64,000 bases of DNA from an uncultured Chloroflexia bacterium (lineage in GTDB: Bacteria; Chloroflexota; Limnocylindria; Limnocylindrales; CSP1-4), in the NCBI GenBank assembly GCA_963707215.1, contig CAVPPB010000003.1, forward strand, positions 992,001 through 1,056,000, given 5' to 3'. A model generated the notes under the pieces. The model made no database searches and was not told where the DNA came from. It saw only the letters and a list, made by a program, of their open reading frames with translations. This document shows positions 616 to 14,820 of the stretch, in pieces. A program made the position numbers and the translations under genes. The number at the start of each line of letters is the position of its first letter. Positions within the stretch are counted from its first letter, which is position 1.

Positions 616-2007
616 CTAGGGCGACGGGCTCGGAGCTCCCGCGGCGGGGGTCCAGTAGCGGCTGTCCTCGCCATAGAAGTCGATGGACAGCTTGACGACG
701 GCGTCCATCTTCGGGACCAGGATGTAGGTGCCGCCGGTCTGGGAGAGCGGCGGCTGGTCCGCATACTTCCTGGGCCCGAGGACGACCCGCTCGACGGTCC
801 CGTCGTTGACCTTCCTGGCCAGGTCCAGCATCTCACCGATGCGTTCGGCCGGGAAGTTGGTGCGGACCGTCTCGCCGGCGGCCGCGATGAGCGACGGGAT
901 CTGGGGGATCACCGATGGATCGGTCAGTCGCTTGCGCAACGCGAGGAGGATCTCCTGTTGCCGGCGCGCCCGGGTGAAGTCATTGTCACCAGCGCCCTTC
1001 CGGGAGCGCGCGTAGGCGAGCGCCTCTTGCCCATCCAGGTGGTGCGGACCCGCAGAAAGCCGGAACCCGACGGGTCGGCCGTCGGTCCACCCGCCGTAGC
1101 CCGGATCGTTGATGGCCTTCTGGTTGACGATGTCGATCCCGCCGACGGCATCGACCATCTGGACGAAGCCCGGCAGGTTGATGGCCGCGTAGTACGGGAC
1201 GGGGACACCCACAAGGTGGCCCAGCGCGCTCATCAGCGCAGGCAGCGGCCCCTCCGGGAACTCGTCCGGGTGGCGCTGCGCGTAGCTCATCAACGAGTTG
1301 ATCTTGCCGCGATAGATCCGCCCGTCCGGCAACTCGAAGCGGGCCAGGTCCCGTGGGATGCTGATCATCGAGGTCTCGCCCGTCTGGGGGTCGATCGAGG
1401 CGACGATCATCGTGTCGGTGAGGTTCGTGCTCCGTCCGGGCTCCGAATCGATGCCCGTGATGAGCACGGTGACCCGCTCACCGGGCGGGGGCGGCGTCCC
1501 GACCGGCGCCACCGGGAACAGGTTCGAGGGATCCGGGGTCGCGCCCGGCGCGGCGCCCGGGTCGTCACCGGTGAAGATCTTGGAGCCGGCTTCGTAGACC
1601 GACCACAGTCCCCAGGCCAGGGAACCGTGGACCAGTAGGGTCACGAGACCGAGGGCACCGAAGGTGGTGAGGGTGGAGGGTCGTCGCCAGGCCCGCCGAT
1701 CGGCGACCTGGATGGCGTCGCCCATCGACAGGATCCGCCAGGCGGCGGTGGCAAGCGCCAGGATCGTGAAGGATCCGGCGATCGCTGGCGTCAGGAAGCG
1801 CAGCGCGAACGTCTCCCAGCCGGTGACCAGCTGCCAGAGGATCAGCCCCGCTAGGGCCAGGGCCGGGATCGCGAACAGGAGGGCCCGGACGGGCCGCGAC
1901 GCGTAGGCCTGGCCGAGGCCGGGCCACAGGAACGAGAGGGCCGTGGCGACGGTCGCAGAGCGGCCGCGGCGCGGGTCCGGTGGCATCCGGCTGGGATCAG
2001 GCTGCAC
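616..2007 (-). CDS. LCP family protein with N-terminal multi-TM domain
   Basis: Motifs VLITGID, TDTMIVAS, SIPRD, KIN, ALAYARSR, DFTRARRQQ; about four N-terminal hydrophobic segments; TGnTACATT -10-like element 9 nt before the GTG. Confidence 0.92.
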   Translation of the reverse strand: MQPDPSRMPPDPRRGRSATVATALSFLWPGLGQAYASRPVRALLFAIPALALAGLILWQLVTGWETFALRFLTPAIAGSFTILALATAAWRILSMGDAIQVADRRAWRRPSTLTTFGALGLVTLLVHGSLAWGLWSVYEAGSKIFTGDDPGAAPGATPDPSNLFPVAPVGTPPPPGERVTVLITGIDSEPGRSTNLTDTMIVASIDPQTGETSMISIPRDLARFELPDGRIYRGKINSLMSYAQRHPDEFPEGPLPALMSALGHLVGVPVPYYAAINLPGFVQMVDAVGGIDIVNQKAINDPGYGGWTDGRPVGFRLSAGPHHLDGQEALAYARSRKGAGDNDFTRARRQQEILLALRKRLTDPSVIPQIPSLIAAAGETVRTNFPAERIGEMLDLARKVNDGTVERVVLGPRKYADQPPLSQTGGTYILVPKMDAVVKLSIDFYGEDSRYWTPAAGAPSPSP

Positions 2008-2188
2008 GGCGGCGCGAATGTAGCACGGGTCGGCGTAACCCTCGTTCTATCGGCGGTCGGTCCCGGGCCTTCGGGCGGGACGACCCGATCAGGCTTCCCG
2101 GGGCTCGGTGGGGCCGGGGTTCTGACGGACCCGTCGCGGCGGGTGTGACGACCAGAGCGTCACCCCGGGGCAAGCCGTGATCCCGGCC

Positions 2189-2938
2189 CTACATCATCGC
2201 CAGGCCGCCGTCCACGCCCAGGACCTGCCCCGTGATGTAGGCGGCCTCGTCGCTGGCGAGGAAGGCGACCGCGTTGGCGACCTCGTCGGGGGTGGCGAAG
2301 CGACCCAGTGGAGTGGCGCCCATGATGCCGTCCTTGACCCGGTCCGGCAGGCCGTCGGTCAGCTCGGTGGTGACGAAGCCCGGCGCGACGGCGTTGACGG
2401 TGATCCCCCGCGAGGCCACTTCACGGGCGAGCGACTTGGTGAGGCCGATGAGGCCGGCCTTGGACGCCGCGTAGTTGGCCTGGCCGGCGTTGCCCATCTG
2501 GCCGGCCACGCTGGTCATGTTCACGATCCGCCCGGAGCGCTGCTTGATCATCGGCCGGAGGACGGCCCGGGCCATGTAGAAGGCGCCGGTCAGGTTGACG
2601 TTCAGCACCTCGGCCCAGGCCTCGTCGGTCATCCGCATCGCCAGGTCGTCGCGGGTGATCCCGGCGTTGTTGACCAGGATGTCGATCCGCCCGAACGCCT
2701 TGAGGGTCTCCTCGACCGTCGCCGCACAGGACGCCGGATCGGTCACGTCGCCGCCCACGCACACGGAGCGACGCCCGATCGCCTCGACGTCGCCCTTGGT
2801 GTGGTCGTCGATCAGGCAGGCGGCCCGGTCGATGAAGGCCACGTCGGCGCCCTGGCGCGCGAGCAGCAGCGAGACGGCCCGGCCGATGCCCCGGGAGCCG
2901 CCGGTGACGATGGCCACCTTGCCGGTCAGATCGATCAT
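2189..2938 (-). CDS. fabG: 3-oxoacyl-ACP reductase
   Basis: TGGSRGIG, NNAGITRD, YAASK SDR motifs; start MIDLTGK overlaps the fabH stop (ATGA). Confidence 0.95.
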   Translation of the reverse strand: MIDLTGKVAIVTGGSRGIGRAVSLLLARQGADVAFIDRAACLIDDHTKGDVEAIGRRSVCVGGDVTDPASCAATVEETLKAFGRIDILVNNAGITRDDLAMRMTDEAWAEVLNVNLTGAFYMARAVLRPMIKQRSGRIVNMTSVAGQMGNAGQANYAASKAGLIGLTKSLAREVASRGITVNAVAPGFVTTELTDGLPDRVKDGIMGATPLGRFATPDEVANAVAFLASDEAAYITGQVLGVDGGLAMM

Positions 2939-4128
2939 GCGTGGACCTCCGTGTGAGCGTGCTCCGGCTCGCCGGGAACGACGTCGTCGAGCGGCACGTC
3001 GACCGGTCCTGGCCGGGCCAGGACCTCGGCCAGGGCCGGCGGGATGGGATCGACCGAGTCCCAGTCGACCGGCAGGCGGACCGAGATGTCCTCGGGGCGG
3101 ACCGTCGCGGCCCGGGCGCCGGCCACCGGGTCGGCGGTCCACTCGATGGCCACCGCGCCGCTGGTGAACCCGGCCCCGAAGGCGACGATGACGATGCGAT
3201 CGCCGACCTTCACCCGGCCGGAGTCGACCGCCTCGGCCAGCGCCAGCGGGACCGACGCTGCCGAGGTGTTCCCGTAGCGGTCGACGTTGACGAACATCCG
3301 CTCCATCGGCAGGTCGAGACCCTTGGCCACCGCCTCGATGATCCGGATGTTGGCCTGGTGCGGGATGAACAGGTCGATGTCGTCGGGGTGGAGGCCAGCC
3401 CGCTCGATGGCCGCGAGGGCCGTGGAGGCAAGGGTCTTCGTGGCGAAGCGGTAGGTCTCACGGCCCTCCATCCGGATGAAGTGCTCGCCCCGGGCGAGCG
3501 TCTCGGATGATGGCGGGCTCTTGGCTCCCCCCGCGGGCAGCCAGATCATGTAGGCGCCCTGGGGCTCGGTCGTCAGCTCGACGCCCAGCGCCCCGCCCGG
3601 CTCATCGCGCCCCGAGACGACCACCGCTCCGGCGCCGTCCCCGAACAGGATGCAGGTGCCCCGGTCGGTGTAGTCGAGGAAGCGGGTCAGCAGCTCGGCG
3701 CCGACGACCAGGACGTGGCGAGCCAGACCGGCCGTCACGTACGCCTGGGCCGTGGAGAAGGCGTAGACGAAGCCGGAGCAGGCGGCCGCGACGTCCATCG
3801 CGGCGGCACGCGTGTTCCCGATCGCTTCCTTCACCAGCGCCGCCGTCGACGGCATCCAGTAGTCGGGGGTCAGCGTCGCGACGAGGATGAGGTCGACGTC
3901 GTCGGGCTCGATCCCGGCGACGCGGATGGCCCGCAGGCCGGCGGTCGCGGCCATCGAGGCCGTCGTCTCGTGGGCGGCGGCGACCCGTCGTTCGCGGATC
4001 CCGGTCCGGGTGACGATCCACTCGTCGTTGGTGTCGACCATCCGCTCGAGGTCGGCATTGGTCAGGACACCGGCCGGCGCGTAGGAGCCCCAGCCGGTCA
4101 CGTGAGCGCGCATTCCAGGATCGGTCAT
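2935..4128 (-). CDS. fabH: 3-oxoacyl-ACP synthase III with C-terminal extension
   Basis: WIVTRTGIRERR, AAACSG, HQANIRII, GNTSAAS, GAG motifs. Confidence 0.95.
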   Translation of the reverse strand: MTDPGMRAHVTGWGSYAPAGVLTNADLERMVDTNDEWIVTRTGIRERRVAAAHETTASMAATAGLRAIRVAGIEPDDVDLILVATLTPDYWMPSTAALVKEAIGNTRAAAMDVAAACSGFVYAFSTAQAYVTAGLARHVLVVGAELLTRFLDYTDRGTCILFGDGAGAVVVSGRDEPGGALGVELTTEPQGAYMIWLPAGGAKSPPSSETLARGEHFIRMEGRETYRFATKTLASTALAAIERAGLHPDDIDLFIPHQANIRIIEAVAKGLDLPMERMFVNVDRYGNTSAASVPLALAEAVDSGRVKVGDRIVIVAFGAGFTSGAVAIEWTADPVAGARAATVRPEDISVRLPVDWDSVDPIPPALAEVLARPGPVDVPLDDVVPGEPEHAHTEVHA

Positions 4129-4781
4129 AGAGGCTCCACCTCGAGGAGGGGCTGCTTCGCCTTCACCAGCTGCCCGTTCTCGGCCGCCACCCGGACGACC
4201 CGGCCCGACAGGTCGGACTTGATCTCGTTGAAGAGCTTCATCGCCTCGATCAGGCCGATGACCTGGCCGGCGACGACCTCCTGGCCGACCGTGACGAACG
4301 GCGCCGAGCCCGGCGACGGGGCCGCGTACCAGATGCCGGTCAGCGGCGCCTTGACCGAGGGTCGGCCGATCGGCGCGGCATGGGCGGCCGCCTCACCGGC
4401 CGGCCCACCGCCCGTGACCGGGGGGCCACCATCCGCCGGACCTGCCGGGGCGGCACCGGGCCCACCCGCCGGCACCGTGATCGCGATGGCCTCGGCGCGC
4501 CGGAGCACCAAGCCGGTGCCGCCCGCCTCCACCTCGAGCTCGACCAGGTCGCTGCCCTCGAGAACGGCAGCCAGCCGATCGACGAGCGCGAGCAGCGACG
4601 CGTCCGTCGAGCCGCGTTTCGGGAGGGTCGCGGCGGCCGAGTCCGATACAGGATCCGGATCCGACGCGAGGGCCGGGTCCGACGCGGGGGCCGGGTCCGA
4701 CGCCGCGCCATGCGCCTGCGCCTGCGCCTGAACGCCGTCGAACGACCCGTCCGGGACTGCCTGCGGCTCATGCTCGGTCAT
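4125..4781 (-). CDS. accB: Biotin carboxyl carrier protein of acetyl-CoA carboxylase (canonical, biotinylatable)
   Basis: IEAMKLFNEI biotinylation motif; Pro/Ala/Gly linker; start overlaps the fabF stop. Confidence 0.93.
   Translation of the reverse strand: MTEHEPQAVPDGSFDGVQAQAQAHGAASDPAPASDPALASDPDPVSDSAAATLPKRGSTDASLLALVDRLAAVLEGSDLVELEVEAGGTGLVLRRAEAIAITVPAGGPGAAPAGPADGGPPVTGGGPAGEAAAHAAPIGRPSVKAPLTGIWYAAPSPGSAPFVTVGQEVVAGQVIGLIEAMKLFNEIKSDLSGRVVRVAAENGQLVKAKQPLLEVEPL
4640..4705 (-). repeat. Imperfect 18-nt coding tandem repeat (SDPAPA/SDPALA/SDPDPV/SDSAAA) in the accB N-terminus
   Basis: gtccga/atccga recurs at 18-nt spacing on the plus strand. Confidence 0.6.
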
Positions 4782-6043
4782 CCGTCCCACCTCGTGAAGA
4801 CGAGGGCGGTGTTCTGGCCACCGAAGCCGAACGAGTTCGACAGGGCGACCCGGAGGTCGCGCCTGGCGGCCGTGCCGGGCGTGAGGTCGAGCCCGGCACC
4901 AGCTTCGTCGGGATCCTCCAGGTTGATCGTCGGGGGGATCGAGCCGGTCCGCAGGGCCTTGATCGTGGCCACGGCTTCGATCGCTCCGGCCGCCCCCAGG
5001 GTGTGCCCGAGCATCGACTTGTTGGCGGTCACGGCCACTCGCCGCGCGTGCTCCTCGCCGAAGATCGTCCGGATCGCCTGGAGCTCGGCCTTGTCGCCCT
5101 CGGGCGTCGAGGTCGCGTGGGCGTTGACGTGGTCGACCGCCTCGGGCGGCAGGCCGGCCTTCTCGAGCGCCCGGCGGGCGGCCCGGACGGCTCCCGTCCC
5201 GCCCGGCGCCGGGAGGGTGATGTGCGACGCGTCGGCCGTGGCCCCGTAGCCGACGATCTCGGCGAGGGGCGTCGCGTCGCGGTCCTCGGCATGCTCCAGC
5301 GCCTCCAGGACCAGCGTCCCGGCGCCCTCCCCGATGACGAAGCCATCGCGACCACGGTCGAAGGGCCGCGACGCCCCGGTCGGGTCGTCGTTGCGGGTCG
5401 ACAGGGCCTTCATCGAGCAGAAACCGCCCATCGCGGCCTCGTGCAGCGGCGCCTCGACGCCCCCGGCGAGCATGACGTCGGCATCGCCGCGGCGGATCGT
5501 CTCCCAGGCCTCGCCGATGGCGTGACCTCCGGTGGCGCAGGCCGAGCAGGTCGCGAAGTTCGGGCCGAGGGGCCCGAAGTGGATCGCGATCTGGCCAGCC
5601 CCGACATTGAGGATGCCCATCGGGATGAAGAACGGGCTGATCCGATCAGGGCCCCGCTCCGCCATCGTCAGGACGCCGTCGAACAGGGTGGAAGTGCCGC
5701 CGAGCCCCGACCCGACGATGACCCCGGTGCGCTCCGCCAGAACGCCCTCGAGCCGCCCGGGCAGGCCCGCCTGGTCCATCGCCTCGCGGGTCGCCACCAG
5801 GGTCAGCTGGATGTAGCGATCGGTCCGCCGCATGTCCTTCGGGCCGAGCACCCCGGATGCGTCCAGGTCGCGCACCTCGGCTGCCACACGCGAGGTCAGG
5901 CGCCTCGCGTCGAACGACGCGATCGGGGCCACCCCGGACCGCCCGGCGACGAGCCCGTCCCAGGTGGCCTCGACGCCCTGGCCGAGGGCGGAGACCACGC
6001 CGAGCCCGGTCACCACGACGCGGCGCGGAGCGCTCGAGTTCAT
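4778..6043 (-). CDS. fabF: 3-oxoacyl-ACP synthase II
   Basis: RRVVVTGLG, SACATG (catalytic Cys), HATST, KSMLGHTLGAAG, NSFGFGG; start MNSS overlaps the upstream stop. Confidence 0.95.
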   Translation of the reverse strand: MNSSAPRRVVVTGLGVVSALGQGVEATWDGLVAGRSGVAPIASFDARRLTSRVAAEVRDLDASGVLGPKDMRRTDRYIQLTLVATREAMDQAGLPGRLEGVLAERTGVIVGSGLGGTSTLFDGVLTMAERGPDRISPFFIPMGILNVGAGQIAIHFGPLGPNFATCSACATGGHAIGEAWETIRRGDADVMLAGGVEAPLHEAAMGGFCSMKALSTRNDDPTGASRPFDRGRDGFVIGEGAGTLVLEALEHAEDRDATPLAEIVGYGATADASHITLPAPGGTGAVRAARRALEKAGLPPEAVDHVNAHATSTPEGDKAELQAIRTIFGEEHARRVAVTANKSMLGHTLGAAGAIEAVATIKALRTGSIPPTINLEDPDEAGAGLDLTPGTAARRDLRVALSNSFGFGGQNTALVFTRWDG

Positions 6044-6786
6044 CGGACCAGCTTCCCCGTCCTGACGGTGGCGGCCCGGTAGACGTCGCCCGCGAGACCG
6101 CGCTCGGAGATGGCGTTGGCCACCGAGAGGGCATCGAAGTCGGTCCGCCGGATCTCGGCCGTGACCTCCTCGCCATCGAGGGTGACGAGGGCCCACGAGG
6201 CTGTCGGATCGCCGTCGAAGACGAAGCCGCAGGAGCCGTCGTTGACGATCTGCTTCCAGCCGAAGTCGCGGACTTCCGGCAGGTGGGTGTGGCCGCAGCA
6301 GATGATCCGAGCATCCGTCCGGGTGATCCGCTCCAGCACCACGGTGGCGTCCAGGTCGGTGTCGAAGCCGGCCGTCTGCGATCCCGGCGACGCATGGCAG
6401 GCGAGCAGCAGGGTGTCCCCGATGCGCAGCCGGCGTTCGGCCGGCAGGCGTCGGAGCCAGGCCAGCCGCTCGTCGTCGAGCGCGTCGTGCGCCCACTCGG
6501 CGGCGGCGACGAACGACGCGGGCGGGCCCTCGGGGAACCACGGGAAGGCCGCCCCGTAGTCGGCGTCGGCCACGGCGATGTCGGTGTTGCCCTGGATGAC
6601 GAGCGCCCCGTCGGCCTCGAGCTCGCGGACGGCGTCGACAGCGCCGACCGGATCCGGCCCGTTCATGACCAGGTCGCCGGCCACGAGGATCGCGTCCGGC
6701 TTCTCCTTCTTGATCGCCTTGCGGACGGCCTCCAGGGCAACGGCGTTACCGTGGATGTCCGAGAGGACGGCGACTCGGGCACTCAC
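6040..6786 (-). CDS. Metallophosphoesterase (calcineurin-like, YfcE/MJ0936-type)
   Basis: SDIHGN, AGDLV, GNTD, HAS, GHTHLP motifs. Confidence 0.9.
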   Translation of the reverse strand: MSARVAVLSDIHGNAVALEAVRKAIKKEKPDAILVAGDLVMNGPDPVGAVDAVRELEADGALVIQGNTDIAVADADYGAAFPWFPEGPPASFVAAAEWAHDALDDERLAWLRRLPAERRLRIGDTLLLACHASPGSQTAGFDTDLDATVVLERITRTDARIICCGHTHLPEVRDFGWKQIVNDGSCGFVFDGDPTASWALVTLDGEEVTAEIRRTDFDALSVANAISERGLAGDVYRAATVRTGKLVR

Positions 6787-7280
6787 CGGAGGACGCCTTC
6801 GCCCGGGATGATGAAGCTCAGGGTGGCCTCGCAGGCGACCTCGCCGTCGACGCTGGCGACACCGCGGCCACGGCCGAAGCGGCTGCCGAGCTTCTCCATG
6901 GTCACCTCCAAGCGGAGCGTGTCGCCCGGCTGGACGACCCGCTTGAAGCGGGTCTCGTCGATGCCGGCGAAGAGACCGATGCGATCACCGAAGCCCGGCT
7001 GCTTCGCGACGTAGACGGCCATCGTCTGGGCCAGCGCCTCCACCTGGAGCACGCCCGGCATGACCGGCAGGCCAGGGAAGTGACCCTGGAAGAACCACTC
7101 GGTGGCGGTCACCCCCTTGAGGCCGACGATCCGCTTCGCCTCCGGGTCGTACTCGGTGATCCGATCGACGAGCAGGAACGGCCAGCGGTGGGGGATGAGG
7201 GCCTCGATCTCGCGGGTGCTGTGGACGAGGCCGTCGGGAGCGGGATCGGTCACGGGTGCCTCCGGATGGCTGAGCGGCAT
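6783..7280 (-). CDS. fabZ: 3-hydroxyacyl-ACP dehydratase
   Basis: IPHRWPFLLVD, FFQGHFPGLPVMPGVLQVEALAQ, FKRVVQPGD. Start uncertain (ATG 7280 or GTG ~7253). Confidence 0.93.
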   Translation of the reverse strand: MPLSHPEAPVTDPAPDGLVHSTREIEALIPHRWPFLLVDRITEYDPEAKRIVGLKGVTATEWFFQGHFPGLPVMPGVLQVEALAQTMAVYVAKQPGFGDRIGLFAGIDETRFKRVVQPGDTLRLEVTMEKLGSRFGRGRGVASVDGEVACEATLSFIIPGEGVLR

Positions 7281-7311
7281 GGGTCCGGCCGAACGGCCGG
7301 GAGGCGACACG

Positions 7312-8682
7312 TCATCCGCGCGTCGCGGCGGCGAGGAAGGCCCCGCTGCCGACCCGGTCGATGAGGTTGGTGGTGAAGCGGCCCTCAAGGAACACGTCGT
7401 GCCGGAGGAGGGCCCGGTGGAAGCCGACGTTCGTCTCGGGGCCGTCGAGGATGAGCTCGTCCAGGGCGGTCCGGCTGCGCTCGATCGCGGTCTGGCGGTC
7501 CGGGCCCCAGACGATCAGCTTGCCGAGGAGCGAGTCGTAGAACGGCGGGACCTCGTAGCCGGCGTAGAGGTGCGAGTCCATCCGGACGAACGGACCGGAC
7601 GGCGGCAGGTAGCGCTCGATCGTCCCGGCGCTGGGCCGGAAGTCGTGGGCCGGGTCCTCCGCGTTGATCCGGAGCTCGATGGCGTGGCCGGTCGGCCGGA
7701 TGTCGGCCTGGGTCAGCCCCAGCCGCTCCCCGGCGGCGATCCGGAGTTGCAGCGTGACGAGATCGATGCCGGTCCGGATCTCGGTGATCGGGTGCTCGAC
7801 CTGGATCCGGCAGTTGATCTCGATGAAGTACCAGCTCCCCTGGGCGTCCACAAGGAACTCCAGCGTGCCGACGTTTTCGTAGCCGGCGGCGACGACCGCC
7901 TGTACGGCCCGGCTGCAGAGCTCGTCGCGGACGGCCGGCGACAGCGACGGTGTGGGCGACTCCTCGAGGATCTTCTGGTGCCGCCGCTGGACCGAGCAGT
8001 CCCGCTCGCCGAGGTGGATGCCGTCGCCGAAGTTGTCGACGGCGACCTGGACCTCGACATGGCGGTTCTCGTCAAGCCACTTCTCCAGGTAGAGCGAGTC
8101 GTCGCCGAAGGCGGCCTTCGCCTCCGACCGGCAGACCTTCATGGCCGTCTCGAGCTCGCGGGGCGTGCGGACCATCCGCATCCCCTTGCCCCCGCCGCCG
8201 GCAGAAGGCTTGATCAGGACCGGGTAGCCGATCCGCTCGGCCTCCCCGAGGGCGTGCAGCTCGTCGCGGAGCATCCCGTCGGAGCCGGGGATCGTCGGCA
8301 GGCCGTGGGCGGCCAGGAGGCGGCGCGTCCCCTCCTTGGAGCCGAAGCGCTCGAGGACCTCCGGCGAGGGTCCCACGAACGTCAGGCCGTGGGCCCGGAC
8401 CGCCTCGGCGAACCCCTCGTCCTCCGACAGGAAGCCGTAGCCAGGATGGACCGCCTCGCAGCCGGTCACCAGGGCGGCCGAGATGATCGACGGCGCCGAG
8501 AGGTACGACCGCTTGGCGTCGGCCGGCCCGATGCAGATGGCCTCGTCGGCCAGGCGCACCGGGAGCGAGTCCCGGTCGGCCTCCGAGTACGCGACGACCG
8601 CCTCGATCCCGAGGGTCCGGCAGGCCCGCAGGATCCGCAGGGCGATCTCGCCGCGGTTGGCGATCAGGACCCGCCGGAACAT
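7312..8682 (-). CDS. accC: Biotin carboxylase
   Basis: VLIANRGEIA, HPGYGFLSE, GGGGKGM, RDCSVQRRHQK, EINCRIQVEH, YDSLLGKLIV. Confidence 0.96.
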   Translation of the reverse strand: MFRRVLIANRGEIALRILRACRTLGIEAVVAYSEADRDSLPVRLADEAICIGPADAKRSYLSAPSIISAALVTGCEAVHPGYGFLSEDEGFAEAVRAHGLTFVGPSPEVLERFGSKEGTRRLLAAHGLPTIPGSDGMLRDELHALGEAERIGYPVLIKPSAGGGGKGMRMVRTPRELETAMKVCRSEAKAAFGDDSLYLEKWLDENRHVEVQVAVDNFGDGIHLGERDCSVQRRHQKILEESPTPSLSPAVRDELCSRAVQAVVAAGYENVGTLEFLVDAQGSWYFIEINCRIQVEHPITEIRTGIDLVTLQLRIAAGERLGLTQADIRPTGHAIELRINAEDPAHDFRPSAGTIERYLPPSGPFVRMDSHLYAGYEVPPFYDSLLGKLIVWGPDRQTAIERSRTALDELILDGPETNVGFHRALLRHDVFLEGRFTTNLIDRVGSGAFLAAATRG

Positions 8683-9377
8683 CAGGCCCCCACCGGCGTC
8701 GTGGGTCCAGCGCCGGCCCTGCCGTGGTCGGGCCCGCCGGGGCCGACCGCCACTGGGGCCGCGGGTGCTCCCGCGTGCTCGGCGCTGTCCACCCCGTCGC
8801 GCACCGCGCGGAAGGCCAGCAGGGGCTGGCCGTACTCGACGACGTCACCGTCCTCCGCGAAGGCCGTCTCCAGGACGCCGTCACCGGGTGCCACGACCTC
8901 CTGGCCGACGCCGAGGACGTCGACCCGGCCGAGGACGTCGCCTGACCGGACCCGGGCGCCCACCCGTCGGTGCTCCTCGTCGAGGTGGAGGACCCCGACT
9001 CCCGGCGACCGGCTGACGAGGGGGGCGTGGGCGAGGGCCTCGGCCAGCGGATCAGGGACCGCCGGCCCGATCGACGTCAACCGCGGGAGGTCGTCCGTCG
9101 CATGACCCTCATGGGCGACGTGCCCGGCACCCCGGCCCAGGCGACCGACCTCGCCGCGGTGGGCGCCGCGCCCGTGGTCGCTGTGCGGCTGGGCGTCGAT
9201 CCGCCGGCGCAGGCGCAGTCGCCAGGCGCCCTCGCGGACCTCGAGCTCGCCGAGGCCGGTCGCCGCGAGCCGCTCGGCGAGAGCCGGCAGCAGGTCGTCG
9301 GCGAGGCCCTCGATCGCGTCGTGGTCGGCACGGCGGGTCTCCGGGGAGCGGTCGTCGAGGGGGTGGCGGTCGGTCAT
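8682..9377 (-). CDS. BCCP-like protein lacking the biotinylated lysine (BADC-like paralog)
   Basis: BCCP-type N-terminus (LGELEVREG), His-rich linker and biotinyl/lipoyl-like domain (SPGVG...VRSGDVLGRVDVLGVGQEVVAPGDG...DGDVVEYGQPL). DVLGV replaces EAMKM, and the 231-aa protein has no Lys. Confidence 0.85.
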   Translation of the reverse strand: MTDRHPLDDRSPETRRADHDAIEGLADDLLPALAERLAATGLGELEVREGAWRLRLRRRIDAQPHSDHGRGAHRGEVGRLGRGAGHVAHEGHATDDLPRLTSIGPAVPDPLAEALAHAPLVSRSPGVGVLHLDEEHRRVGARVRSGDVLGRVDVLGVGQEVVAPGDGVLETAFAEDGDVVEYGQPLLAFRAVRDGVDSAEHAGAPAAPVAVGPGGPDHGRAGAGPTTPVGA

Positions 9378-10390
9378 CGGTCGGCCTTCGTGGTGGTCTC
9401 GGGGTCCTCACGGCGAGGGGGTCGCGGTGGCCCCATCTCGCCAAGGGTGCGACGGCCCGCGTCGATGAGGCCCTGGAGCCTGCCGGCGAGCCCGGGGCGC
9501 TCCACGACCTCGGGCGCGGCACCCGGGATCTCCTCGTATGGTCCCATGGCGCGGTAGCGAGCGTAGCGCCGCTCCAGCAGCTCGTCGATCGGGATCGCCT
9601 CGAGGGCATCGAGACGTTCGAGGAGGATGGGGCGGAGTCGCCGGGCGGTCTCGGCGGGATCGGCGTGGGCGCCCTCGTCCGGCTCCGGCACGACGTCGTC
9701 GAGGATCCCCAGCTCGAACTGGTCGAGCGCGGACATCCGCATCGCGAGCGCGGCGGTCGCCGCCTTGTCGCTGGTGCGCCAGAGGATGGACGCGCAGCCC
9801 TCCGGGCTGATGACCGAGTAGACGGCGTTCTCCAGGCCGATGACGACGTCCCCGACGGCGATCGCCAGAGCTCCGCCGGAGCCGCCCTCGCCGGTGATGA
9901 CGACGACGATCGGCGTCCGAAGTCGGGTCATCAGCCCGATCGAACGGGCGATCGCCTCGGCGACCCCACGCTCCTCCGCCGCCGGACCCGGGAAGGCGCC
10001 GGGGGTGTCGACGATCGAGATGACCGGCAGCCGGAAGCGCTCAGCCAGCTCCATCGCCCGCATCGCCTTGCGATAGCCCTCGGGGTGGGGCATGCCGAAG
10101 TTACGCCGGATGTTCTCCTCGGTCTCGGCCCCCTTCTGGTGGCCGATGACCACGACCCGTCGGCCGTCGATGCGGGCAAGGCCAGCGACGATCGCGGCGT
10201 CGTCGCCGTAGAGCCGGTCGCCGTGGAGCTCGACGAACTCATCGGCGAAGGTATCGACGAGCTCCAGCGTCCGGGGGCGCCGGAGGTTCCGAGCGAGCTG
10301 GACCCGGGCCCAGACCGACGCCTCGGCGTCTGCAGGCACGTCGGGTGGGGGCGGGCTCGGGCGATCGCGGCCGAGCAGCCGGTCAACCAC
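9374..10390 (-). CDS. accA: Acetyl-CoA carboxylase carboxyltransferase alpha subunit
   Basis: WARVQLAR, ELHGDR, GHQKG, RNFGMPHPEGYRKA, DTPGA, GEGGSGGA, YSVISPEG. Confidence 0.95.
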   Translation of the reverse strand: MVDRLLGRDRPSPPPPDVPADAEASVWARVQLARNLRRPRTLELVDTFADEFVELHGDRLYGDDAAIVAGLARIDGRRVVVIGHQKGAETEENIRRNFGMPHPEGYRKAMRAMELAERFRLPVISIVDTPGAFPGPAAEERGVAEAIARSIGLMTRLRTPIVVVITGEGGSGGALAIAVGDVVIGLENAVYSVISPEGCASILWRTSDKAATAALAMRMSALDQFELGILDDVVPEPDEGAHADPAETARRLRPILLERLDALEAIPIDELLERRYARYRAMGPYEEIPGAAPEVVERPGLAGRLQGLIDAGRRTLGEMGPPRPPRREDPETTTKADR

Positions 10391-11525
10391 GGTCGGCCTC
10401 CCCCTCCCCGGTCGCGCCGGACTCGGAGGTCGGAGCGGAACCGGCGGTCACGGTGGATCCAGGGAGGGCGACGGGTCCCGGCCCTGGACCGGATCCGTCG
10501 TCCAGGGTGCCGGGCGAGATCGCCGCTCCGGGCGGATCGCCGGACGGCGCCCCACTGGGCGGGACCGTCGGCGGCGAAGATCGGGCCGCCACTGGCTCCT
10601 CGGGCAGGACCCGATCGACGAGGCCGCCCAGTCTCGAGAACGGTCGGAAGACCCGCTCGGCGGCCCCGATGGCATCGCGCTCGGCGACCCGCGGATCGGG
10701 CGGGACCAGGAAGCGAAGCAGCGTCCCCAGCTCGCCGCGCATCTCGTTGCGGGCGACGACCCGGTCCACGAAGCCGTGCTGGAACAGGAACTCCGCCCGC
10801 TGGAAGCCCGCCGGCAGCTCCGTCGCGATGGTCCCGGCGGCGACCCGGGCGCCGGCGAACCCGATCAGGGCGTTCGGCTCGGCCAGGTTGACGTCGCCGA
10901 GGGCTGCGTACGAGGCGAACACCCCGCCGGTCGTCGGGTCGGTCATGACGGACAGGTAGGGCACGGCCGCGGCCCGCAGCCGCTCGAGGGCGGCGACGGT
11001 CTTGGCAAGCTGCATTAGGGCGAACGTCCCCTCCTGCATCCGGGCGCCGCCGGAGGCAGAGACGACGATCAGCGGGGTCCGCTCGGCCAGGGCCGCCTCG
11101 GCCGCCCTGGTGACCTTCTCGCCCACGACCGCGCCCATGGAACCGCCCATGAAGCCGAAGTCCATGACGCAGATCGCTACGCGCTGGCCGTCGATGCGCC
11201 CGAAGCCCCAGACCGCGGCGTCGCGAAGGCCGGTGGCGACCTGGGCCGCGGCAAGCCTGTCCGGGTATGGCTTCTGGTCCACGAAGCCGAGTGGATCCAC
11301 CGACACTAGCCCGGCGTCGCGCTCATCCCAGCTGCCTGGGTCGAGCACGAGGTCGAGTCGGGCAGCCGCGCTCAGGCGGAAGTGATGGCCACAGTTCGGG
11401 CAGACCCGACCCTGCTTCTCGAGCTGCTTGTTGAAGAGCAGCTCCTCGCAGGAAGGGCACTTGGTCCACAGGTCGGCCGGGTACGACTCCTTGCGCGATC
11501 GGAAGGACGGCAGGCGGATCGGCAT
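10383..11525 (-). CDS. accD: Acetyl-CoA carboxylase carboxyltransferase beta subunit
   Basis: LWTKCPSC...VCPNC zinc finger, FMGGSMG, SGGARMQEG, PTTGGV, IGFAG, FQRAEFL; long low-complexity C-terminal tail. Confidence 0.95.
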   Translation of the reverse strand: MPIRLPSFRSRKESYPADLWTKCPSCEELLFNKQLEKQGRVCPNCGHHFRLSAAARLDLVLDPGSWDERDAGLVSVDPLGFVDQKPYPDRLAAAQVATGLRDAAVWGFGRIDGQRVAICVMDFGFMGGSMGAVVGEKVTRAAEAALAERTPLIVVSASGGARMQEGTFALMQLAKTVAALERLRAAAVPYLSVMTDPTTGGVFASYAALGDVNLAEPNALIGFAGARVAAGTIATELPAGFQRAEFLFQHGFVDRVVARNEMRGELGTLLRFLVPPDPRVAERDAIGAAERVFRPFSRLGGLVDRVLPEEPVAARSSPPTVPPSGAPSGDPPGAAISPGTLDDGSGPGPGPVALPGSTVTAGSAPTSESGATGEGEADRG

Positions 11526-12019
11526 CAGGGAAGCCCCCCGGGGCCGCCGGGCCGGAGGGTGCCGGCGAGGCGAGCGGCCGCAGCCAGCGGGTCGCCGGCA
11601 GGCCGGCTCAGGCGCCAGGCGACGAAGGCCGCCCCGGCGATCGAGAGCGCGGCTGACGCCACGGCGCCCCCGACCAGCAGTGGTCGCGACACACCGGGCT
11701 CGCGGTGTGCCTCGACGTCGAGGGACGGGTCGGCGGGATCGAGGCCAGGGTCGATCGGGAACGGCAGCGGGATCGTCAGGCCCTCGGCGCCGGAGGCGGA
11801 GCGGACTCGCATCGACGCCGCGACCTCGGCCAGGCGGCGGGCAAGGCGGTCCTCGAAGCGGAAGGACGGGTGGACCCGGACGAGCTCACTGCCCAGTCGT
11901 CCGGCCGCGGCCGCGACGACCGGATCCGGGGCGACGGCCGCCGATCCGGCCAGGAGCGACTCCAGGTAGCGGTCGGTCTGGATCGCCTCCATGTCGAGGC
12001 GGTCGCGCGCGTCGGTCAT
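11525..12019 (-). CDS. Hypothetical single-TM protein, putative anti-sigma factor
   Basis: Coupled directly after the ECF sigma gene; N-terminal segment with PSFRFEDRLARRL followed by one hydrophobic helix (LLVGGAVASAALSIAGAAFVAW). Confidence 0.6.
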   Translation of the reverse strand: MTDARDRLDMEAIQTDRYLESLLAGSAAVAPDPVVAAAAGRLGSELVRVHPSFRFEDRLARRLAEVAASMRVRSASGAEGLTIPLPFPIDPGLDPADPSLDVEAHREPGVSRPLLVGGAVASAALSIAGAAFVAWRLSRPAGDPLAAAARLAGTLRPGGPGGLP

Positions 12020-12642
12020 CGGCCGTCGATCCCGAGATCCCGGGCGACGCTGCGGAGGGCCCGGTGGATGAGGACCCGGACGGCTCCCTCGGAGCGGCCG
12101 AGGACCCCGGCGATCTCCGCCGTCGACATCTCCTCGACGAACCGGAGCGTCAGCGCCCGCCGGCGGTCGGCGGGCAGCCGATGGACGGCCGCCCAGGCCT
12201 CGCTCGCCTCGGCGCGCCGCTCCACGCGGGCGGCCGGGTCACCGTTCGCGGCGATGGTTGCGGCAGCCTCCAACGGAGCCTGGGGGCGACGGCGGGCCTC
12301 GCGTCGCCGGTTGGAGATGACGTTCCGGGCGATCCGGAACAGCCAGACTCGGAAGGTGCTGGCGCCGTCTCCCTCCTCGGGCCGGGCGCGCTCGTCAAAG
12401 CGCGGCAGGGCCACCAGCGCCTGGAGGAACGTCCGCTCGGTGGCGTCCTCGGCGTCGTGATGGTCGCGGAGCTCGTAGAAGGCGAAGCTGTACACCTGGG
12501 CGACGTACTTCCGGTACAGGGCGTCGAATCGTTCGGGGTCCCTCCGGGCCGCCTCCACGAGCGGACGGTCCGCGTCGAGGTGGACGACCCGGCCGCCGCG
12601 CGACTGGCGGGCCCCTACCCTTCCCAACACCGGTCGGGGCAT
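12016..12642 (-). CDS. ECF sigma-70 factor
   Basis: Region 2 (FDALYRKY...DAEDATERTFLQA...WLFRIARN) and region 4 (LPADRRRALTLRF...STAEIAGVLGRSEGAVRVLIHRA). Start may be later. Confidence 0.93.
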   Translation of the reverse strand: MPRPVLGRVGARQSRGGRVVHLDADRPLVEAARRDPERFDALYRKYVAQVYSFAFYELRDHHDAEDATERTFLQALVALPRFDERARPEEGDGASTFRVWLFRIARNVISNRRREARRRPQAPLEAAATIAANGDPAARVERRAEASEAWAAVHRLPADRRRALTLRFVEEMSTAEIAGVLGRSEGAVRVLIHRALRSVARDLGIDGR

Positions 12643-12646
12643 CTCG

Positions 12647-13546
12647 TTACACCCCCGGACCGGCGGCGGCCGGCGGCGTCGCGCCGACGACCCTGACCCG
12701 GTCGACGTCAGCCGCGAGGACGATCCGCTCGCCGCCGGGCGCCGAGTCGTCGGCGATCACGAGGCCGCCCGACCCCGGGTCCACGCCGAGGGCACGGGCG
12801 TCCTCGGTGTGCGCCTCGCCGGTCCCGCTCAGGCGCACCATCCGCCCGGTGGTCGCCTGGCGGCCGATCCAGTCGTCCATCGCGAAACGACCCAAGCGCA
12901 GCGCCTCGACCCGCGGCTCGAGACGGGCGAGGAAGCCGTCCAGCAGCAGGGTCGGATCCACCGGGCGACCACCGGAGGCGACGCGAAGGCTCGTCATGCT
13001 GGGCGCCAGCTCGGGCGGGAAGGCGTCCTCCGGCCAGTCGGCGTTCAACCCGATCCCGACGACGGCCCGCGGGTCCTGCGTCCCGAGGCCGTCGGTCTCC
13101 CCAAGGACCCCGCCGAGCTTGCGCAGCTCGATCGGCCCGGCCAGGAGGGCGCGTGCGGCCTGCGGGTCCATCTCGGCGACCAGCGGAGCGCCGGGCCCGG
13201 AAGTCTCGACGACGAGGTCGTTCGGCCACTTGAGCCGGATCGCGCCGTCGGGCAGACCGGCGGCGTCCTCGGACGCGTCGGCCATCGCGAGCGCGACGAC
13301 GGCCGCCAGCCTCCAGGCCCGGGCCGGCTCCAGGTACTTCGGCCGGAAGCCGACCGACAGCAGGAGCCCGGCCCCGACCGGCGCCGTCCAGCGGCGGCCG
13401 GCCCGGCCACGCCCGGCCGTCTGCTCGTCGGCGACAGCCAGGCAGACCTCGTCGGTGCCGTCGGCAAGCCAGGCCCGGACGACGTCGTTCGTGGAGCCGA
13501 CGGCGTCGAAGCGCTGGCTGCGGGCCAGGAACGGCCGGCCGCTCAG
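12647..13546 (-). CDS. birA: Biotin-protein ligase (no N-terminal HTH), probable CTG start
   Basis: The frame continues upstream of the track's ATG with GSTND, ADEQTAGRGRAGRRW, then KWPND, KLGGVL, GIGLN. The best start is a CTG overlapping the lysC stop, preceded by GGAGG. Confidence 0.9.
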   Translation of the reverse strand: MSGRPFLARSQRFDAVGSTNDVVRAWLADGTDEVCLAVADEQTAGRGRAGRRWTAPVGAGLLLSVGFRPKYLEPARAWRLAAVVALAMADASEDAAGLPDGAIRLKWPNDLVVETSGPGAPLVAEMDPQAARALLAGPIELRKLGGVLGETDGLGTQDPRAVVGIGLNADWPEDAFPPELAPSMTSLRVASGGRPVDPTLLLDGFLARLEPRVEALRLGRFAMDDWIGRQATTGRMVRLSGTGEAHTEDARALGVDPGSGGLVIADDSAPGGERIVLAADVDRVRVVGATPPAAAGPGV

Positions 13547-14820
13547 CCGATCCCCTCCGCCATCGCCTCGGCCACCTCGGCCGGCTCGGGTCGCTCGAGC
13601 TCGAAGGCGGCATGGAGCGCCCGAACCGCGGTCTCGACCTGGTCCTCGGCGATCATGCAGGTGATCCGGATCTCCGAGGTGGAGATCATCTCGATGTTGA
13701 CCCCGGCCGCGGCCAGGGTCCGGAACATCCGGGCCGCGTACCCGGGGGCGTTGTGGATGCCGGCCCCGACGATCGAGACCTTGGCGACCGAAGAGTCGGT
13801 CGTCAACTCGCGGAATCCGAGGTCGCGGACGATCGGCTCGAGCACCCGCTTCGCCGCCGCCAGGTCGACGGCCGGGATGGTGAACGACAGGTCGGTCGCG
13901 CCGTGGTGGCCGACGTTCTGGACGATCATGTCGACGTTGATGCCGGCGTCGGCGAGCGGCTCGAAGACGGCCGCTGCGACGCCCGGTCGATCGGGCACTT
14001 CGACGAGGGTCGCCTTGGCCACGTTGCGATCGTGGGCGATCCCGCGGACCTTGTTCCGCTGCTCCACGAGCGGGTCCTCCTTGATCAGCGTTCCGGGTAC
14101 GTCCTCGAACGAGGACAGGACCTCGATGACGACAGCGTTGACCCAGCCGAGCTCGACCGCTCGGACCTGCATGACCTGCGCCCCCTGGTGGGCCAGCTCG
14201 AGCATCTCCTCGTAGCCCACGACGGGCAGCTGGCGGGCGTCGGGGACGATCCGCGGGTCGGCGGTGTAGATGCCCAGGACGTCGGTGAAGATGCGGCAGC
14301 GGTCGGCACCGAGCGCCGCGGCCAGGGCCACCGCGGTCGTGTCCGAGCCGCCCCGGCCGAGGGTCGTCGTCTCCGCGAGCCCTGCCGCCTGGGAGCTCAG
14401 GCCCTGGAAGCCGGCCACGATGACGACCTTGCCGCCGGCCAGCTCGGCGTGGACCCGGGCCGGATCGATCCCGGCGATGCGGGCCCTGCCGTACGTGCCG
14501 TCGGTGGTGATCCCGGCCTGGGCCCCCGTCAGCGAGATGGCCGGACAGCCGAGGGCCTGGAGGGCCATCGAGACGAGGGTCGCGCTCTGATGCTCACCGG
14601 TCGCCAGGAGCATGTCGAGCTCGCGCGCGTCGGGCTCGTCGGTGACGGCCGCGGCCAGGGCCAGCAGCTCGTCCGTCGTGTCGCCCATCGCGGAGACGAC
14701 CACGACCAGGTCGGCGCCGGCCTCGCGGTCGGCGGCGATCCGGGTGGCGACCCGACGGATCCGTTCGGCGCTGCCGACCGAGGACCCGCCGAACTTCTGG
14801 ACGATGAGGGGGGCTGCCAT
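13543..14820 (-). CDS. lysC: Aspartate kinase
   Basis: VQKFGGSSV, VVVVSAMG, TTLGRGGSDTTA, DPRIV, two ACT domains (KVSIVGAG, EMISTSEIRI). Confidence 0.96.
   Translation of the reverse strand: MAAPLIVQKFGGSSVGSAERIRRVATRIAADREAGADLVVVVSAMGDTTDELLALAAAVTDEPDARELDMLLATGEHQSATLVSMALQALGCPAISLTGAQAGITTDGTYGRARIAGIDPARVHAELAGGKVVIVAGFQGLSSQAAGLAETTTLGRGGSDTTAVALAAALGADRCRIFTDVLGIYTADPRIVPDARQLPVVGYEEMLELAHQGAQVMQVRAVELGWVNAVVIEVLSSFEDVPGTLIKEDPLVEQRNKVRGIAHDRNVAKATLVEVPDRPGVAAAVFEPLADAGINVDMIVQNVGHHGATDLSFTIPAVDLAAAKRVLEPIVRDLGFRELTTDSSVAKVSIVGAGIHNAPGYAARMFRTLAAAGVNIEMISTSEIRITCMIAEDQVETAVRALHAAFELERPEPAEVAEAMAEGIG

Follow-up and report, generated by a model that had tools for sequence, protein, structure and literature searches.

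A lysine-less AccB paralog encoded between accA and accC in Limnocylindria: a possible non-catalytic subunit of a bacterial acetyl-CoA carboxylase

The heteromeric acetyl-CoA carboxylase (ACC) of bacteria is usually given as a four-gene enzyme (accABCD), with accB encoding the biotin carboxyl carrier protein (BCCP). The present analysis concerns a gene, designated here as X, which encodes a lysine-free BCCP-like protein between accA and accC in a 64,000-nucleotide stretch (referred to here as the window) of contig CAVPPB010000003.1, derived from an uncultured Chloroflexia bacterium assigned to the class Limnocylindria. The closest described systems are the BADC proteins of the plastid heteromeric ACC of plants, which lack the AMKL motif and which, in the sections of PMC11926652 consulted, are argued to act either as inhibitors or as a glue between biotin carboxylase (BC) and BCCP; the same sections report that BADC binds both BC and BCCP, and that the surface of BCCP touched by BADC is its thumb. 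Cited there as holoenzyme 'glue' are also the epsilon subunits (AccE/PccE) of actinobacterial acyl-CoA carboxylases, which are small and non-catalytic. For the ACC tubes of Escherichia coli, an excerpt of PMC11160672 describes the first ~30 residues of BCCP as an alpha/beta/beta motif, modelled as oligomerising, with BC and the N-terminus of AccD providing a non-catalytic docking site for the BCCP barrel.

A full-text literature search, supplements not covered, returned BADC-type proteins from plants and algae only and no description of a lysine-less BCCP paralog from bacteria. A dead BCCP paralog beside heteromeric ACC is known already; what is new here is a bacterial, operon-embedded and class-wide version of it, with relatives across the phylum.

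As a sequence-only reading of the window had stated, the operon was found to contain two BCCP-like genes, namely a canonical accB with an IEAMKL motif (102.5 bits against the BCCP equivalog model TIGR00531, E=3e-29, model positions 7-155 of 156) and X, which is an intact reading frame with an ATG start and 0 lysines over 231 residues. Alignment placed VDVLGV of X opposite EAMKL/EAMKM, with a glycine where the acceptor lysine stands. X consequently lacks the biotinyl-lysine in an (E)AMK(M/L) hairpin that marks a functional BCCP, and attachment of biotin or lipoate to another lysine of the protein is ruled out, as it has none; X cannot accept biotin, in agreement with the earlier claim. Nor was an alternative attachment lysine conserved among the nearly invariant columns of a 31-sequence alignment. 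Given the mean lysine content of the operon neighbours (1.9%, n=9 proteins), the probability of finding no lysine in 231 residues is ~0.012. The score of X against TIGR00531 was 21.8 bits, compared with a cut-off of 115.2, and its match to the Pfam profile Biotin_lipoyl (PF00364, residues 138-187), the profile by which the biotinyl-domain assignment was to be checked, was obtained at 22.1 bits, a borderline value that coincides with the cut-off of 22.1; in a whole-genome Pfam scan, X scored 24.4 bits for the same profile. As a BCCP homolog without a biotinylation motif beside a true BCCP, X conforms in this respect to the description of a BADC-type protein.

Profile alignment, an AlphaFold2 (AF2) model and a Foldseek search agreed on an architecture of N-domain, linker and C-terminal barrel. 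The model, calculated from a 33-row alignment, has a mean predicted local distance difference test (pLDDT) value of 76. A profile of 33 family members aligned with full-length E. coli AccB (4HR7_B, residues 26-176) across both domains at E=1.6e-23, which bears out the earlier assertion that the BCCP N-terminal and biotinyl-domain patterns are retained in X. In this alignment, L-G was positioned opposite M-K and a six-residue gap fell at the thumb; the thumb typical of ACC-type BCCPs is missing from X, with a gap of 5-6 residues relative to both the operon AccB and E. coli AccB. The N-domain, for which the alignment with E. coli AccB starts at residue 26, was predicted to consist of two helices (residues 12-28 and 30-40) and a beta-hairpin (strands 44-49 and 52-57), with L33, L37, L42, E44, E46, V47 and R57 as nearly invariant positions. 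The best Foldseek matches of X in the PDB were BCCP biotinyl domains (TM-target 0.80-0.86) from Pyrococcus, E. coli (1BDO/4HR7) and Arabidopsis (BCCP1). X is an AccB paralog in which both folded modules have been kept, while the acceptor lysine and the thumb are gone.

Neither the length nor the sequence of the linker between these modules is constant among family members. X contains 13 histidines, 6 of which are located within residues 61-110, so the His-rich linker noted earlier holds for this protein, yet the feature is shared by its closest relatives only (P0002-P0008). Linkers of more distant family members are rich in Arg, Gly, Ala and Ser and very different in length.

The conservation of X was assessed in a set of 253 proteins, comprising 111 proteins from a sequence search and 142 new cluster representatives from an exhaustive profile search. 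The column of the acceptor lysine was occupied by Gly in 249 of these proteins, by Arg and Met in one each and by a gap in two, and in no case by lysine. Among the 111 proteins of the first search, 110 displayed a hairpin without lysine, the exception (P0109) resembling a frame-fused prediction. Matches to X were detected in 39 of 41 related genomes, among them all 16 members of a genus with genomes of 1.0-1.4 Mb; the two without a match are assemblies of 580 contigs (92% complete) and 410 contigs (66% complete). Canonical accB was likewise present in 39 of the 41 relatives at E<=1e-32, with weak matches only in the other two. For the loci compared directly (L001-L032, i.e. the window's own and 31 from relatives), LG was observed in all 30 complete relative copies, ten of which come from the 1.0-1.4-Mb genus; one copy was cut at a contig end and one was split over two frames. 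The split copy (L031, G022:C1:727900-729300) belongs to a single-contig relative and reflects a genuine frameshift or else an indel introduced in assembly.

The gene order accD-accA-X-accC was shared by 11 of 11 loci and by three of three more distant members of the class. The sequence-only reading had named an MK motif in close relatives, or loss of the gene from the operon, as observations that would speak against it, and neither was encountered. In three loci from another family of the class (L118-L120), X and accC are separated by ~430-870 bp, as measured by stop-to-stop coordinates of the open reading frames, versus a 1-bp overlap here. The ratio of non-synonymous to synonymous substitution rates (dN/dS, NG86), calculated for a single pair formed by X and a same-genus ortholog, was 0.18 overall, 0.12 for the N-domain and 0.14 for the barrel, indicative of purifying selection. 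Local decay of X into a pseudogene is excluded by its conservation and its dN/dS.

X is part of a run of ten packed minus-strand genes (positions 2189-11525) in the order accD-accA-X-accC-fabZ-metallophosphoesterase-fabF-accB-fabH-fabG, in which the stop codon of one gene overlaps the start codon of the next (ATGA, GTGA or TGATG) at all but one of the nine junctions. The tight placement of X proposed earlier was evident from its own junctions, with an ATGA overlap between the accA stop and the X start and a TGATG overlap between the X stop and the accC start. Translation of X is coupled to that of accA and accC, so that the protein is produced in concert with AccA and AccC. The AccC encoded beside X is the only stand-alone biotin carboxylase of the genome, the other one being fused to its own biotinyl domain. 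The sequence-only reading had also placed X outside a frameshifted region; this region was not recovered, since each of the ten operon genes is an uninterrupted open frame.

To place X within a wider family, the species-representative genome collection was searched, and 282 stretches were found to encode a relative of X; the best 80 of these 282 are titled Chloroflexota, mostly Candidatus Limnocylindrales, with some looser labels and one Patescibacteria. In a phylum sample of 301 genomes, a strong profile match (E 5.5e-26 or better) was present in 33 of 33 genomes of the window's class. For other classes, the best profile match was inspected in 27 genomes, a non-random set chosen by best E-value. 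Nine of these matches were ordinary EAMK AccBs. The other 18 were lysine-less, the site being occupied by G, N, A, R, M or Q; they correspond to loci L154, L155, L158, L161, L162, L164 and L166-L172, and further to L113, L116, L117, L121 and L122. The lysine-less homologs of other classes were preceded immediately by efp in eight of eight loci and followed by xseA in six of eight, and an M24 peptidase gene stood before efp in four of four, giving a pepP-efp-X-xseA context; no acc gene was present within ~1.6 kb at 20 loci of other-class homologs. Both genomes compared in this respect (those of L142 and L143) additionally encoded a canonical, N-domain-bearing AccB with the motif IEAMKV. In the Ktedonobacteria-type subfamily (P0254-P0373), Asn occupies the lysine site in 119 of 120 proteins, and some members carry an insert of thumb length. 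The genome from which the window comes has efp and xseA as neighbours, and no family match was found between them at E<=10; a second copy at this locus was rejected on that basis, and the acc-operon copy is the only lysine-less one of the genome.

The source records of Ktedonobacteria-type proteins (Thermogemmatispora, Dictyobacter) and those of X-family proteins alike carry the name 'acetyl-CoA carboxylase biotin carboxyl carrier protein'. For proteins without the acceptor lysine, this naming is probably a systematic mis-annotation, and one that can mislead metabolic reconstructions.

The origin of X was addressed with a maximum-likelihood tree (LG+G4) of 60 sequences and 124 columns, plant BADC not being among the sequences. 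All 22 MK-bearing AccBs formed one clan, with an ultrafast-bootstrap (UFboot) value of only 60%. The Limnocylindria accB clustered with MK AccBs of two other Chloroflexota (UFboot 99) and apart from X, on the basis of which a recent duplication of the operon accB as the source of X was rejected. Lysine-less proteins of other Chloroflexota were located on the X side of the tree, away from the MK AccBs, with weak support. The duplication that separated X from accB predates the class, both because lysine-less paralogs occur in other classes and because accB groups with MK AccBs of other Chloroflexota and not with X. A single origin of every lysine-less form is possible, though not established. 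As X groups with the lysine-less paralogs of Chloroflexota, it would have arisen independently of plant BADC.

By analogy with BADC, X may be a non-catalytic scaffold or assembly subunit of a five-component ACC, a reading to which we assign a probability of about 0.42. In sequence and predicted structure, X keeps both of the modules that mediate contacts between BCCP and the other parts of ACC. Its AccB-type N-terminus could co-oligomerise with the N-termini of true AccB and/or bind AccC, its lysine-less and thumb-less barrel would fill a BCCP docking site on biotin carboxylase, and X would form a structural part of ACC, as in the 'glue' model of plant BADC. Any binding of X to ACC subunits, and the direction of any effect on activity, are inferred. 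A more far-reaching version is held more tentatively: many Chloroflexota may maintain, under selection, an ancient dead BCCP that forms mixed N-terminal oligomers with AccB and docks on biotin carboxylase, as an independent counterpart of BADC. The BADC-like ACC subunit envisaged by the sequence-only reading survives as the best reading, since the AccB N-domain and barrel fold are kept; what that reading missed is that the wider family is phylum-wide and, in other classes, encoded outside acc operons.

Several observations weigh against a scaffold function in ACC. The residue that replaces the lysine varies by class, so this position is not under one shared constraint. Lysine-less homologs of other classes do not stand beside acc genes, and the linkage to ACC is specific to the window's class. 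The thumb, reported as the surface of BCCP that BADC contacts, is absent from X. X also evolves faster than the catalytic subunits, its identity to the copies at L003-L012 being 42-47%, compared with 59-77% for AccA and 73-85% for AccC. Finally, the choice of a scaffold over an inhibitor turns solely on obligate stoichiometric co-expression being odd for an inhibitor.

The alternative that fares best, although we consider it unlikely, is that X is a competitive attenuator of ACC, corresponding to the inhibitor model for BADC cited in the consulted sections of PMC11926652. X would then displace AccB on biotin carboxylase or within the BCCP oligomer, leaving fewer productive biotin sites, and might be tuned by a PII-like signal or through the His-rich linker. 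The structural features of X suit this role as well as they suit a scaffold, and the X:AccB ratio could vary, as AccB is encoded apart, four genes downstream. However, coupling to accA and accC and retention in genomes of ~1.1 Mb are more in keeping with a constitutive component than with a regulator, regulatory sites were not identified, and only close relatives share the His-rich linker. The scaffold is favoured over the attenuator because a structural component would be expected to be co-expressed stoichiometrically and to be retained when genomes are streamlined.

Somewhat less probable again is a role of X outside ACC catalysis, either in a function linked to the efp locus or as an N-domain transcriptional autoregulator. 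The former draws on the efp and xseA neighbourhood of other-class homologs and on the lack of acc genes around them. However, linkage of efp and accB is common in bacteria, and the efp locus could be nothing more than the original position of accB; moreover, in the window's class the gene has been kept in, or moved to, the acc operon, with codon overlaps. The latter agrees with a statement in the excerpt of PMC11160672 that the N-terminus of E. coli AccB alone can negatively regulate expression, but a pure N-domain function leaves unexplained why the barrel is as constrained as the N-domain. That X has no function, as an accB duplicate in decay or as an artefact of assembly or annotation, is scarcely credible: the Pfam score just at the cut-off and the split copy at L031 would fit, but they are outweighed by the intact frame, the LG motif fixed in the 253-protein family, the dN/dS of 0.18, class-wide conservation, lysine-less homologs in other classes and confidently modelled AF2 domains.

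The features of the locus are compiled in Table 1. Upstream of accD lie two further minus-strand open frames (11525-12019 and 12016-12642) and, beyond them, a birA-like gene for a putative biotin protein ligase, assigned by GRGRAGRRW and KWPNDL, which we take to be birA-type motifs; its 5' end and the 3' end of the gene upstream of it seem to overlap. The metallophosphoesterase gene, the codons of which overlap those of both neighbours, is not a usual component of an operon for fatty-acid synthesis. After its carboxyltransferase domain, AccD ends in a long low-complexity tail of ~90 residues rich in Pro, Gly, Ser and Ala (10383-10700). A promoter and terminator scan of positions 1500-14000 returned 0 sites of either type and is uninformative at a G+C content of 72%.

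Table 1. Coordinates in the window of X, its domains and the associated genes
Feature	Position	Strand	Basis or remarks
birA-like biotin protein ligase, intact	12647..13560 (5' end approximate)	-	GRGRAGRRW and KWPNDL, single open frame
accD, carboxyltransferase beta, zinc ribbon	10383..11525	-	Pfam Carboxyl_trans, Zn_ribbon_ACC
accA, carboxyltransferase alpha	9374..10390	-	Pfam ACCA, 1.2e-114
X, lysine-less AccB/BCCP paralog	8682..9377	-	Open reading frame call and profile homology; 231 aa, ATG start
N-terminal domain of X, residues 11-58	9204..9347	-	pLDDT ~90; homologous to AccB alpha/beta/beta motif
Linker of X, residues 62-103, disordered	9069..9194	-	pLDDT <50; rich in His, Arg, Gly
Biotinyl-fold barrel of X, residues 110-191	8805..9050	-	pLDDT ~97; without Lys, without thumb
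Gly156 codon of X, biotinyl-Lys position	8910..8912	-	Aligned to K of E. coli EAMKM
accC, biotin carboxylase	7312..8682	-	Pfam CPSase_L_D2, Biotin_carb_N, Biotin_carb_C
Calcineurin-like metallophosphoesterase	6040-6786	-	Metallophos_2, 2.6e-20; between fabZ and fabF
Canonical accB, IEAMKL, between fabF and fabH	4125..4781 (or 4790)	-	TIGR00531

If the proposed role is correct, this bacterial counterpart would offer an independent and simpler system in which to settle whether a dead carrier domain serves assembly or inhibition, given that X is hard-wired between accA and accC and that homologs occur in cultured Ktedonobacteria.

Compared with the systems described so far, the proposed role of X resembles that of AccE/PccE as a small, non-catalytic assembly subunit, by description only; AccE/PccE are not known to be BCCP homologs and belong to carboxylases with fused alpha subunits. 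The lysine-less proteins of other Chloroflexota are, like X, two-domain AccB homologs without the acceptor lysine; the Ktedonobacteria type differs in having Asn in place of the Gly of X, in the thumb-length insert of some members and in its pepP-efp-X-xseA context in place of an acc operon. With E. coli AccB, X shares the alpha/beta/beta N-terminus, the flexible linker and the C-terminal barrel, and it occupies the position directly before accC that accB holds in accBC operons; in contrast to E. coli AccB, it lacks the acceptor lysine and the thumb, carries an extra N-terminal helix (residues 12-28) and shares its operon with a separately encoded true AccB. The closest likeness is to plant BADC1-3, as X too is a BCCP homolog without a biotinylation motif beside a true BCCP in a heteromeric ACC, while differing from them in being bacterial and operon-encoded between accA and accC, with a fixed glycine in place of the lysine and a deleted thumb.

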